Shown here: one piece after another, positions 42,001 through 47,271 of the stretch
How the letters are laid out: each line of letters starts with the position of its first letter
How positions within the stretch are numbered: the stretch's first letter is position 1
IMG/VR virus record: IMGVR_UViG_2839594473_000016
DNA from: a virus
Taxonomy: Duplodnaviria; Heunggongvirae; Uroviricota; Caudoviricetes
Strand: one strand, 5' to 3'
DNA: 47,271 bases
Program-made: the position numbers

Positions 42001-45000
42001 ATGGCTTACCCCCTTGCTGACTGGTTTTACCTGTGCCCTGACGTGCTGCACGTGACGGGCAAATTTCTGCTCCCACTGAACCTGCGTGAAAACCTTCCCC
42101 TCCGCCATCCAGTAATCCCGGAATGCGGCAAGCTCAGCAGGTGTAAACTCAGGCTCAGGCAGAGCCATACCCCACAATGCAGCCCGCTGTCGAAAATCCA
42201 GCGACGGCCGCCAGACACCAGTCATCGGAAATTTCCCGATCGGTTCGCTCAGGCCATCCGGGTATTCAGGTTCTGCTGTCTGCAACGGCGCGCCATTCGA
42301 CTCACTGGCTGGAGCACTCTCGCGCATGCGCGCGTTATGTGTGGGGTTTAATTCTTTATCTGTATCTGTATCTGTCGTGACTTGTCGTGACATATGCGTG
42401 ACGCGTCGTGACTCATCGTGACAATCAGTGTTCTGCTCCCGCAGTCTTTCCCGCTCCCGCTGCGCTCTCTTGCGCTCTGCCGGGGATTTTGCGGTTTGCG
42501 AAACATTACCGTTATCCTCCTTCATCACCTGGCGTTTTTCCCATCCGGAAATAAGATCGCCATCCAGAACTCGCCCCTGCATTGCATGCAAAATTGAATC
42601 AATCACGTCTTCCGTCACATCAAGCGCACTTGCTAAATCTTCCGTCGTGACATCAATGTGACCACGTAGTGACTCGCCGTGACATTTCGTGACATTTCGT
42701 GACGCACTCACCAGAAGGTGGATATACACCGCCATCACTGTTGCGATTGGCTGTCCTGAGACCCTGGCAATGGTTCGCCATTTGGGATCATTTGGCATGT
42801 CATGCCACAATCTGAGCCAGGCATTAGCCATACTCACCTCATCTGATACCGAACTTTACCCTCGAACATCCGGAAGAAATCCGGCATGAATATTGTTGGT
42901 CAATGCACGACAACAGCATTACCAGGCTGACCCCCACTGTTAGTCAGGGTGCCCCAGGCGATCGCCGCTGCGACAAAATCATCCACATCTTTCACCAGCC
43001 GATCCCTCCGTTCGACGATCTCACGGTAATATTCAGAGCTGTGACTGCGCATACGGGCCACCAGCAGAGGCGGCATTGCCTTTTCGATCGCCGGTAACAG
43101 AGCCTGCATTTTTTCAACAGCATCAGGGGTGTCTTTATCCAGCCAACGGAAAATTTTCTGGGTATTACGAGCCAGGGCTTCCGGATGGCTGTCGTCGTAC
43201 AGTTCCGGGAACGTCATCCCCAGTTCGAAATAAGTCCGGGCTATTTCAGCTGCAGGAACTTTCTCACCATCAGGATATGCCCAGGCATTCATCGCCATGC
43301 GGATGTGCTCATGTTTGATTTTCATGAATCATTTGCCTCTTGATGCTTCGGGTATGATCGTTTTCGTCATTTGGTTGCTTCATCGACATATTCTGCGAAT
43401 AACATGACGAGCGTCGTAAGTATGTCCAATCAACATCAGGACGAAGTTCTTCACACAGGACACCACCTTTTGTTGCTCGTTCAATCGCAGGACATCTCTC
43501 AGCAGGCAACTGACGTACACCTTTGATCCATTGATTTACGCTTGGAGGAGATACACCTAAAAGCCTAGCCATTGCTGATTGCCCACCGACAACAGCACAA
43601 GCTCGTTTGAATGAATAGTTATCTTTTTTCATCGAATGAACTCCAAAAAACACACAATAATATTAGGCTTAGCCTAATGCAATTGTCAATAGGCTATGCC
43701 TAACACTTCGAGAGTAGGCATTGCCTAATGCGATGCGCATAGGAGACTATTAAGCAATGCTTAGTGGTAAAGACTTAGGCCGAGCGATAGAGCAGGCCAT
43801 TAACAAAAAAATTGCATCAGGAGCCGTCAAATCAAAGGCGGAAATCGCACGTCATTTCAAAGTCCAACCACCATCAATCCATGACTGGATTAAGAAAGGT
43901 TCGATAAGTAAAGACAAACTTCCAGAACTATGGCGTTTCTTTTCTGATGTGGTTGGTCCAGAGCATTGGGGGCTTAACGAATACCCCATACCAACCCCAT
44001 CCACTTCAGATACAAAAAGTGAACTTTTAGACATAAACAGCCTTTATCAAGCCGCCTCTGATGAAAAAAGAGCAATTGTGGCTTTCCTCTTATCTGGAAA
44101 TGCTACGGAGCCTAGTTGGGTTGATCATGACGTTCGTGCCTACATTGCCGCAATGGAAATGAAGGTAGCTAACTATCTGAAAAATCAAGAATCAAAACGG
44201 AAAAGCCAGAACATCACCAAGACAGGAACTTAAACTTATATGGTCCGACGGGAAATTCCTAGTTCCCGTTAGTTAACTCCTACTACCTCTCCCACAAACC
44301 ATCACCTATTAGGTCGCACCCAAATCATTAGGCGTAGCCTATTGACAAGCAATTAGGCATTTCCTATAGTTTTCCCATACCAACCCATCCCGTCCCACAC
44401 AATACAGGGCAATACCTAGAGTTACCCGGCAGTGGTCAGGGATTAAGTAGCCAGCCCGAGGCGTAAGAACATGACGGCAGGGTTCAACTTTAACTATGCA
44501 GCAGGTTTTTGTTCCGCTACCCCGGCGTTAAGGGGATATGAGGTCAGCATGGATACTCTTGATCTTGGCAACAACGAATCTCTGGTGTGCGGCGTGTTTC
44601 CCAACCAGGACGGCACGTTCACCGCGATGACGTATACCAAAAGCAAAACGTTTAAAACCGAATCTGGCGCGCGTCGCTGGTTAGCAAGAAACTCTGACTA
44701 ATGAAATCTGGTAATTAAGGAATCCTCCACGGGGGGAGAGTGGTGCACACGCGCCGGACACAAGCAAGCATCCGGCATGCTCTTTAACAATCTGGATATC
44801 CATAACAGTAAAAATCTACAGATTGCCGTTCAGTTTTCTGGCCAACTCTTCAATAGATGGAGGTGATACGTAATCCGGATTTTTATTCATAAGAAACTGA
44901 TTTTCACAGTACAGGCACCTGCTTTTATGAAAAAATTCATATTCTCTAACCGGGAATGGCTGAAGTATCGATACTATCTTTTGTCCAAAACATTTTGGAC

Positions 45001-47271
45001 AAAGATGCATGATTATGCTGCCGCCGTTCACGGTTACCTCCTTCGAGTACACAAAAGTTCCCGACTCAAGTTGGCTAAGGATATAACCTTCCGTCTGAGC
45101 CTCAAAGTTTTCAAATTCTGCAATTTTAGCTTTGAGAGAAGCATTTATTTCTTGATAAGTGCCCACCAGCTCAACGAGAGACACGCATTCGCGCTGAATA
45201 GATGCAAGCTTTGAGTTCAGTTCACCAATAGCCGCATTTACTTCAGCTTGAGTTTTTGCCTCGTTCATTAGTTTTGCAATCTGGGCGGTTTCACGAATAG
45301 CCGTCATTGCTGCCGTTAATTCAGCGATCACATTCAATACTCTTATTGTTGTTGGGGATATCCAGATTAACAAGATCCTTGTTGTTGGGGAATAACGGGG
45401 ACCACCTCGCCTGACGTGGTAAAAAGCAGGCACACAACACGAAAGCACACGGCGAGGGACACCATTAAATGGTGGCTTAAGCAATCACGCGAAGCGCAAT
45501 CTGCCATTATGACCGATGAAATCCCGTTAGATGATGCACTGTTACAATTGCGGGAATTTATCGACGAAAACTCCGGTGAATTTTTTGTTCAGGTCTGGGG
45601 AAATGGAGCCAACTTCGACAACACGATTTTGCGCCGTTCATACGAACGGCAGGGGATCCCCTGCCCGTGGCGTTACTACAACGATCGCGATGTACGCACA
45701 ATCGTTGAGCTGGGGAAAGCCATAGACTTCGATGCCAGAACGGCTATTCCATTCGAAGGTGAGCGCCATAATGCACTTGATGACGCCCGTTACCAGGCAA
45801 AATACGTTTCAGTTATCTGGCAAAAACTGATCCCGAGTCAGGCTGATTTTTAATGTTCAACCGTCGCCAGTTGTCGTTGATATTCTGCAACTGGCGCGTT
45901 CCGGAGTGATAGCCATGAGCGAACAGTACCTGATAACGCTCGACGAGTGGAAACCAAAACGGTTCAGTCTCCCAATAACAAACACTACCCTGGTGAAATA
46001 CGGAAAACTAGGATACATCGTTCCAAGACCACAAAAAATTCGTGGGCGTTGGCTGATAGATCGCCGAGCAGTATTTGTTGGGCCTGGTGAAACGGGAATT
46101 GCGCCGGAAATTCATACTGGCGATGATGATGCACTGAAGGAGATTTTAACTCATGTCACCGAGGCCACGAAAAAACAGCACTGACGTAGCCGGTCTTTAC
46201 GAAAAGTTTGATCGCAGAACTGGCAGAGTTTACTACCAGTATAAAAATCCTGTGACTGGAAAATTTCACGGACTCGGAACAGACAAAGGTAAGGCAGAAA
46301 AAATCGCTTCCACAGCCAATCAGCGAATAGCTGCAGCAGAAGCTGAATATTTCATGCGCAAAATTGATGAAAGTCCGTCAGCAACAAAACGTCGGGGTAT
46401 CAGATTAAAGGCATGGGTTGATCGATATCTGAAAATACAGGACACGCGACTGAAAAATGGAGATATTGCAGCTACAACTCACAAAGAAAAAACTCGAATG
46501 GCTGCATACCTGGTTTCCCGTCTGGGAAACCACCCATTGAAAGAACTGGAAGTAAGAGACTTTGCATTAATACTGGATGAGTGGCTGGATAAAGACATGG
46601 TCAGTACAGCGAGAGTAAATCGTGGATTATGGGTTGATATTTATAAAGAAGCACAGCATGCAGGGGAAGTTCCTCCTGGATGGAATCCTCCGGAGGCTAC
46701 CCGTAAACCGATCCCTAAAGTAACCAGAGCCAGGCTCACCATGGAAGACTGGCAAAAAATTTACAATGCAACGCCTGAAAAACACTTTATCCGTAACGCA
46801 ATGCTTCTTGCGATTGTTACTGGTCAGCGCCGTGATGACATTTGCCACATGCGTTTTTCAGATGTGTGGAACGAACACTTGCATATCACCCAGGGAAAAA
46901 CCGGAATGCGTCTGGCGTTACCGCTTACACTACGCTGTGATGCCATTGGGATAACGTTAAAAGAAGTTATTGATGGGTGCCGAGACAGAATATTAAGTCC
47001 ATATCTAATCCATAGTCGGCACCAGAAACAACCGAAGCCGATGAGTAAAGACAACCTGAGCGACTACTTTGCCAAAGCACGGGATCTGGCTGGGGTAATT
47101 CCACCAGCAGGAAAAACTCCGCCAACATTTCATGAACAACGCTCTCTATCAGAACGGCTGTACCGTGCACAGGGTATCGATACAAAAACATTACTAGGAC
47201 ATAAAGTCCAGGCAACCACCGATCGCTATAACGATACTCGAGGTCAGGAATGGGTTAAGTTGGTTATTTGA

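Follow-up and report, generated by a model that had tools for sequence, protein, structure and literature searches.

The window analysed here is the complete 47,271-nt stretch of IMG/VR virus record IMGVR_UViG_2839594473_000016 (Caudoviricetes), and the gene under study lies on its minus strand, within the early-left region of the defective Escherichia coli O157:H7 prophage CP-933N. We propose, with a probability of roughly 0.75, that this rip1-like gene encodes a divergent member of the Rip1 (ring-interacting pore) family and constitutes a self-contained antisense moron of the prophage. The family itself is already known, having been described in early 2026; what is new is one more divergent member, previously annotated as 'hypothetical'. 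A match of 100% identity to window 44300-46200 was found in E. coli O157:H7 genomes, EDL933 among them, where the region forms the int end of the prophage and adjoins potC, and one deposited copy of the protein is labelled 'unknown protein encoded by prophage CP-933N'. The early-left genes (a racR-like repressor, the ydfA-like DUF1391 gene, an exonuclease remnant, xis and int) occupy the plus strand. The rip1-like gene thus runs opposite to the early-left operon, as stated in a preliminary description of the window that had been made from the sequence alone. The coordinates of all features are collected in Table 1.

Assignment of the gene product to the Rip1 family

Membership of the Rip1 family is well supported by comparisons of sequence and predicted structure. 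The protein was assigned to phrog_1244 (E = 1e-57), a group whose function is unassigned in PHROGs and within which HK446 gp37 (Rip1) and Pseudomonas JBD30 gp30 also fall. A phmmer search of the PDB identified entry 9oox, ring interacting pore 1 (Rip1), with E = 7e-7; the title of this entry describes phage HK446 Rip1 complexed with the T6 small terminase. A profile constructed from homologues aligned to the same entry with E = 1.6e-15, covering positions 8-151 of the 170 in the profile and residues 18-160 of the 164 in the entry. When an AlphaFold model of the protein was compared with known structures using Foldseek, 9oox was the sole significant match (probability 1.0). BLASTP alignment revealed 27% identity to HK446 gp37 (E = 5e-13) and 30% identity to JBD30 gp30 (E = 6e-20). 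Furthermore, when a protein library clustered at 50% was searched with a profile, 2,237 cluster representatives scored E ≤ 1e-3, and almost all of these were 145-180 residues in length and matched from end to end. Searches of Pfam, PADLOC and NCBIfam yielded only sub-threshold coiled-coil noise for this protein.

The preliminary description had considered the gene to be an orphan of no recognisable family, a view refuted by phrog_1244, by the 2,237 cluster representatives and by the solved structure 9oox. The structure prediction that it had suggested as a check led, through AlphaFold and Foldseek, to Rip1 only. Its guess that the gene serves superinfection exclusion or defence was right in kind, by homology to Rip1, an experimentally characterised prophage defence.

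As summarised in a review of the work of Patel et al. (Nature 2026;651:1060), and in line with a conference report, Rip1 is a single prophage protein, harmless alone, that acts as an abortive-infection defence. Mutations allowing phages to escape it were found in the portal of phages infecting Pseudomonas and in the small terminase of those infecting E. coli. Twelve Rip1 subunits encircle the 11-mer small terminase; contact with the ring is made by the C-terminal half of the protein, and an amphipathic helix constitutes its N-terminal part. The resulting complex forms pores, releases dye from liposomes and perforates cells, leading to premature lysis of those that are infected.

A protein with the Rip1 fold could conceivably perform another job, either as a zinc-ribbon regulator that binds nucleic acid or as a factor acting on the packaging machinery of the resident phage. 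We consider this unlikely. The homology to Rip1 is full-length and includes the N-terminal helices, extending beyond the Cys4 knuckles, and Foldseek gave no other significant match. Additionally, the gene invariably stands apart, as an antisense unit outside the operons of phage functions, and its promoter module is common to the exclusion gene sieB (see below).

Start codon and domain architecture

The preliminary description had drawn an antisense open reading frame of about 163 residues. The frame itself was confirmed: it ends at 44816, and translation from ATG 45307 yields 163 residues. However, this ATG is codon 9 of a 171-residue frame opened by GTG 45331, and the latter is most likely the true start. 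We assign it as such because the eight-residue extension is conserved (the residues MIAEL.AAM ahead of ATG 45307 are kept in 19 of 20 aligned homologues), because RefSeq also begins the protein at GTG 45331, because an Enterobacter homologue possesses an ATG at the same position, and because an AAGAG Shine-Dalgarno sequence (45340-45344) is placed 8 nt 5' of the GTG. Met9, encoded by ATG 45307, is nearly invariant in close homologues and recalls the dual start of sieB/esc.

The AlphaFold model, a monomer prediction generated from a 20-sequence alignment with a mean predicted local distance difference test score (pLDDT) of 87, comprises two helices (residues 2-24 and 28-79) and, after them, a beta-rich domain. 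The N-terminal half is therefore helical, in agreement with the coiled coil proposed previously. Its hydrophobic moment peaks at 0.44 over residues 8-25, and a hydrophobicity scan of the protein found no segment of transmembrane grade. The C-terminal domain aligns to residues 90-160 of 9oox and contains the CPKC and CLYC motifs that the preliminary description had pointed out. The cysteines of both motifs are invariant in the 20 close homologues and in the HK446, HK620 and JBD30 relatives; from E. coli to Pseudomonas, Y83, V94, L123 and the SILQ motif are likewise invariant. With its invariant CxxC...CxxC pattern set inside a confidently predicted beta-rich domain, this Cys4 domain may be a zinc ribbon.

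Comparison of allele sequences indicates that the gene is under purifying selection. Relative to the PhiR29 allele, the ratio of non-synonymous to synonymous substitution rates (dN/dS) was approximately 0.14, a value based on 18 synonymous and 10 non-synonymous differences. A single amino acid distinguishes the protein from the allele of strain M8, in whose prophage the early-left region is intact.

A mobile cassette with an antisense gene

Homology to phage PhiR29_1 and to strain IHE3034 (93.6%) ends abruptly at 44779 and 45439, within early regions that are otherwise unrelated. These sharp ends define a cassette of 661 bp, which consists of the gene together with 37 nt downstream and 108 nt upstream. 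The cassette was found in 655 (12%) of the 5426 complete E. coli genomes searched, where two main alleles predominate, one with at least 99% identity (mostly O157:H7) and the other with approximately 93.5% (diverse pathotypes). Alleles with 65% identity (another E. coli, locus L016) and 50% identity (Enterobacter) occupy the identical slot. The context differs in other hosts: the gene is antisense in all of them, with cro and the replication genes as its neighbours in a Salmonella prophage, and is placed between N and cIII in HK446 and HK620 (the classical sieB slot in the pL operon), and between terS and terL in JBD30. In every context examined it is a stand-alone single gene of about 165 codons in antisense orientation.

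The gene is bracketed by a 13-nt inverted repeat, which on the gene strand reads GGATATCCAGATT / AATCTGGATATCC (44791-44803 and 45358-45370). One arm is situated just past the stop codon; the second is flanked by the predicted -10 element and the RNA start. The repeat is kept in several alleles, extending to 15 bp in the Enterobacter allele and carrying two mismatches in L016, and could be an operator or a site of long-range pairing in an antisense transcript.

A deletion truncated the neighbouring exonuclease

The rip1-like gene had been described as replacing the 5' end of the early-left exonuclease, exactly where the Exo I part was thought to be missing. N-terminal truncation of the exonuclease was confirmed; its replacement by the gene was not. 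The intact homologue is a protein of 813 residues with a RecE N-terminal region and a DnaQ-like Rv2179c 3'-5' exonuclease domain at residues 632-803. Alignment with the M8 prophage (locus L010) matched window 44376-45457 to L010 3095-4179 and window 45456-45862 to L010 7099-7505, revealing a clean deletion of 2,919 bp with its junction at 45456/45457, 125 nt 5' of the rip1-like start codon. Lost with this deletion were dicF, dicB and ydfD as well as 681 codons from the start of the exonuclease. A junction-spanning match (at least 80% of the query) was obtained in 267 complete genomes, and those among the matches listed were O157:H7-type throughout.

In M8, 2013C-3181 and L016 the gene order is DUF1391, rip1-like gene (antisense), dicB, ydfD, full-length exonuclease and xis. 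DicF, assigned with Rfam and for M8 only, is located at L010 4365-4416, between the rip1-like gene and dicB. The possibility that the cassette had been inserted into the exonuclease was ruled out, since all three relatives keep both the gene and a full-length exonuclease. Given that both are intact in these relatives, the moron was inserted and the exonuclease truncated in separate events, and the alignments indicate that the deletion merely moved the exonuclease remnant to within 125 nt of the rip1-like gene. A comparison of site occupancy across related prophages, which had been suggested earlier, therefore finds the gene in its slot with intact early-left neighbours.

An upstream module shared with sieB

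In close alleles the level of conservation in the 108 nt 5' of the start codon equals that of the coding region, and the module of about 110 nt is 90% identical to that of the active phages PhiR29 and PhiR49. The 108-nt stretch can be aligned with the DNA 5' of HK446 rip1 and HK620 hkaP despite less than 30% identity between the proteins, and a sensitive blastn search matched it to the P22 sieB promoter region. The alignment is collinear through a hairpin-like element (GTGCCTG.CTTTTAACCAC.TCAGGC..GGTGG), both copies of a direct repeat and the start codon, and over this module P22 sieB, HK620 hkaP and HK446 rip1 are nearly identical. The P22 annotation positions the sieB promoter at 29690-29720 and its RNA start at 29727; the promoter elements predicted for the rip1-like gene were transferred from these by alignment.

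The direct repeat reported in the preliminary description proved to be exact. The 13-nt sequence TTGTTGTTGGGGA (TCCCCAACAACAA on the gene strand) is present in two exact copies only, 33 nt apart, where the chance expectation for such repeats is estimated at about 0.01 per 1 kb. The pair is kept in relatives, and its two copies vary in concert between lineages, with two copies of CCCCAACAAC in one case and two of CCCCTACAG in the other. A CsrA-type GGA hairpin (AACAAGGATCTTGTT) in the upstream region was also considered and rejected, being 5' of the predicted RNA start and not kept in the HK446 or P22 versions.

The similar genomic slot and the homologous promoter and leader might suggest a superinfection exclusion protein of the SieB type, which is what the annotation of HK620 hkaP had proposed from position. 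SieB proteins, however, belong to phrog_1301 (which includes P22 SieB) and phrog_6399, and the rip1-like protein, a phrog_1244 member, matches neither; there is no similarity between the proteins, and SieB is absent from both the structure and the sequence matches. SieB identity is thus a very remote prospect, effectively refuted at the level of the protein family, and a shared late abortive-infection phenotype would not imply homology.

The module was also identified ahead of unrelated genes: sieB (phrog_1301), SfIV gp36 together with its counterpart in phage Kati (phrog_5286), and an 83-residue gene of Salmonella phage F1055. By association with the module, SfIV gp36, the Kati counterpart and F1055_0037 are candidate exclusion genes.

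Predicted hairpins on the early-left strand

A consensus fold of ten module sequences, obtained with RNAalifold, predicted two hairpins on the pL strand. Overall, 97.5% of cells were paired and 7 pairs were altered on both sides; none of 500 shuffles matched this result, and slid controls reached 37-48%. For the main hairpin, 94 of 97 cells were paired on the plus strand versus 84 of 97 on the gene strand, where pairs are lost because 11 G.U pairs become A.C. As the main hairpin is 5' of the predicted mRNA start, a role as RNA is sensible only on the early-left strand. Single-sequence folds of the upstream region on both strands were no more stable than shuffled sequence (z = -0.5 for the putative antisense RNA), so the RNA argument is a purely comparative one. 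We advance it as a reasoned hypothesis that the upstream module may encode a sas-like antisense RNA on the early-left strand.

Table 1. Features of the window and of related loci. Positions refer to the window unless a locus (L number) is given; aa, amino acid residues.
Feature	Position	Strand	Basis or remark
rip1-like coding sequence	44816..45331	-	171 aa from GTG 45331 (most likely start); stop codon 44816-44818; RefSeq WP_000559928.1 coordinates agree
N-terminal helical half, aa 2-79	45095..45328	-	AlphaFold; amphipathic, putative pore-forming part by homology
C-terminal beta-rich Cys4 domain, aa 84-150, with SILQ motif	44882..45082	-	pLDDT >90; putative phage-ring contact part by homology
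CPKC, aa 111-114	44990-45001	-	CxxC motif
CLYC, aa 139-142	44906-44917	-	CxxC motif
Mobile 661-bp cassette	44779..45439		Also present in unrelated prophage backbones, at 93.6% identity
Upstream regulatory module	45332..45440	-	Alignments with HK446 rip1, HK620 hkaP, P22 sieB, SfIV gp36, F1055_0037
Direct repeat copy 1	45346..45358		+1 to +13 of predicted mRNA
Direct repeat copy 2	45379..45391		Overlaps -35 on gene strand; 5' arm and GGGG loop of plus-strand hairpin
Predicted -10, TAATCT	45364-45369	-	Transfer from P22 by alignment
Predicted RNA start	near 45358	-	Transfer from P22 by alignment
Two predicted RNA hairpins, pL strand	45377..45431	+	RNAalifold consensus, ten module sequences
Hairpin 1	45377-45400	+	RNAalifold; 10-bp stem, GGGG loop
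Hairpin 2	45409-45431	+	RNAalifold; GCCUG/CAGGC
Exonuclease remnant, last ~132 codons, pseudogene	45457..45853	+	PF16473 profile positions 47-177 of 177; RefSeq: N-terminally truncated
Deletion junction, 2,919 bp versus strain M8 prophage	45456..45457		Alignment to M8 locus L010, 2 nt overlap
Module copies elsewhere	L005 3322-3440; L006 3379-3497; L018 1185-1308		Homology to window 45332-45440
SfIV gp36	L019 1608-2042	antisense beside repressor	Module-associated
Phage Kati counterpart	L020 1608-2042	antisense beside repressor	Module-associated
F1055_0037	L021 1618-1869	antisense beside repressor	Module-associated
ALIL frameshift pseudoknot	16144-16260	-	Rfam
sok antitoxin beside hokD	37721-37895		Rfam
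Small RNA STnc100	33931-34097		Rfam
P22-type sar antisense RNA, just 5' of ant gene	10397-10463		Rfam

Other features of the prophage

Signs that the prophage is defective, and its accessory genes, were noted in window 19756-22340 and about 1-11900. The EDL933 annotation gives a frameshifted portal gene and a truncated tape measure; an IS2 is also carried, as are espN and nleL, which are type III effector genes. The terminase genes terS and terL (about 24553-26774) are apparently intact. Relative to the EDL933 assembly NZ_CP008957, window 12127-16592, in the tape-measure region, has approximately 3.5 kb that is either additional or rearranged. The ALIL frameshift pseudoknot, which is typical of IS3-family insertion sequences, was located here with Rfam, and the extra sequence is probably an insertion sequence. 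The other RNA elements identified with Rfam (sok, STnc100 and sar) are given in Table 1.

Discussion

By homology to Rip1, the gene would be transcribed in the repressed lysogen, with the early-left operon off, from a sieB-type promoter of its own. Once a foreign phage had reached late expression, the Cys4 domain would bind an oligomeric ring of that phage, either small terminase or portal, and the ring would template assembly of a Rip1 ring of about 12 subunits. The N-terminal amphipathic helices would then form a membrane pore, and the infected cell would die before progeny were complete. The activity and the targets of the O157 protein are in this respect inferred from the family. The module suggests a further step, which is speculative: upon early-left derepression, transcription over the locus could produce a structured sas-like RNA covering the leader and Shine-Dalgarno sequence, and this antisense RNA, together with convergent transcription, might lower Rip1 synthesis such that a module-bearing phage is spared.

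Several points weigh against this proposal. Identity to the validated Rip1 proteins is only 27-30%; target specificity is therefore not transferable and activity itself is uncertain. A literature search found no mention of Q8X8C7, WP_000559928 or AAG55872 in any paper, and the identity observed among O157:H7 genomes is a matter of clonality, not selection. A scan for consensus sigma-70 promoters and terminators detected none attached to the gene, so that the promoter assignment derives from P22 homology alone. Since the module sequences represent approximately three lineages, few of the compensatory events in the hairpins are independent. The PhiR29 (L002), Salmonella (L012) and Enterobacter (L015) alleles possess an intrinsic terminator (AGCGTCC...GGGCGCTTTTT) about 40 nt past the stop codon, which is lacking from the O157 version (window 44740-44815); here, as in 2013C-3181 and L016, the sequence is different and has no T-run. 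Finally, the host prophage is defective, with a frameshifted portal.

The absent terminator, the absence of a consensus sigma-70 promoter and the state of the prophage would also be expected if the gene were an inactive passenger, that is, a descendant of the Rip1 family no longer expressed or functional in a decaying CP-933N. To these may be added the truncated exonuclease, the deletion of dicF and dicB, and the proximity of the deletion end, only 125 nt upstream of the gene. The reading frame, however, is intact with all family-invariant residues present, and the complete module of about 110 nt is retained at 90% identity to the active PhiR29 and PhiR49. The dN/dS value of 0.14, and the single amino acid that separates the protein from the M8 allele in its intact early-left region, likewise speak against decay. 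We thus regard an inactive passenger as improbable and favour a divergent Rip1-family protein encoded by a self-contained antisense moron. Taken as a whole, the observations of the preliminary description are partly confirmed and its interpretation partly supported: the reading frame, the motifs, the repeat and the guess at defence stand, whilst the orphan status and the replacement of the exonuclease do not.

A likely function, namely single-protein abortive infection triggered by assembly rings, can thereby be proposed for a gene annotated as 'hypothetical' in 655 of 5426 E. coli genomes, 267 of which have the deletion junction of the O157:H7 type. This bears on the phage susceptibility of Shiga-toxin-producing E. 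coli and on phage-based typing or therapy. It also means that a decayed, effector-carrying prophage still keeps an intact defence cassette.

The sieB-shared regulatory module may be the one lead that goes beyond existing knowledge. It is tempting to regard the stretch of about 110 nt as a portable driver of exclusion genes, in which a sieB-type promoter and a sas-like RNA on the opposite strand have repeatedly been joined to unrelated abortive-infection genes (sieB, rip1, SfIV gp36 and F1055_0037), a tentative idea to which we give somewhat less than even odds. If true, a module-bearing phage would silence its own exclusion gene once the early-left operon fires. This would explain the constant antisense placement of these morons and provide self-sparing for Rip1, and the module could serve to tag new exclusion genes in lambdoid prophages. 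A functional module of the sieB type would tie an antisense-RNA mechanism of 1993 to a defence family of 2026 and would flag further small exclusion candidates.

Comparison with known systems

The closest likeness is to Rip1 itself (HK446 gp37 and the protein of a P. aeruginosa prophage). The proteins share phrog_1244, the 164-171-residue size class, a full-length profile match and a unique structural match. A helical N-terminal half followed by a beta-rich CxxC...CxxC domain with SILQ is common to Rip1 and the O157 protein. In each case the gene is a lone prophage-borne gene, antisense to the surrounding phage operon, and HK446 rip1 has a homologous upstream module. The O157 protein differs from HK446 Rip1 in an extra C-terminal tail of 15-20 residues (PPSIEELARKLNGNL, a predicted helix) and in its lack of the 10-residue N-terminal extension of HK446. 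The slot is also different, since in Rac-like prophages the gene is situated between ydfA (DUF1391) and dicF, as opposed to the N-cIII interval of HK446 and HK620 and the terS-terL interval of JBD30.

HK620 hkaP is a Rip1-family homologue with 28.8% identity (tblastn) that has been annotated as a 'putative superinfection exclusion protein'. That annotation is positional, and hkaP belongs to another subfamily and slot than the O157 gene.

In P22, sas is a 105-nt cis-antisense RNA. By pairing with the sieB mRNA it redirects translation away from SieB and towards the inhibitor Esc, so that the phage is not subject to the exclusion that it encodes itself (Ranade and Poteete 1993, Genes Dev 7:1498). 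The likeness of the O157 locus to sieB/esc/sas resides in the homologous promoter and leader of about 110 nt, with its paired CCCC(A/T)ACA repeats and two hairpins, in the antisense position inside the early-left operon, and in a second in-frame start soon after the first. This internal ATG is 8 codons downstream in the O157 gene versus 24 in sieB. The proteins are unrelated, and an Esc-like product and sas RNA are known from sieB, not from any rip1 gene.

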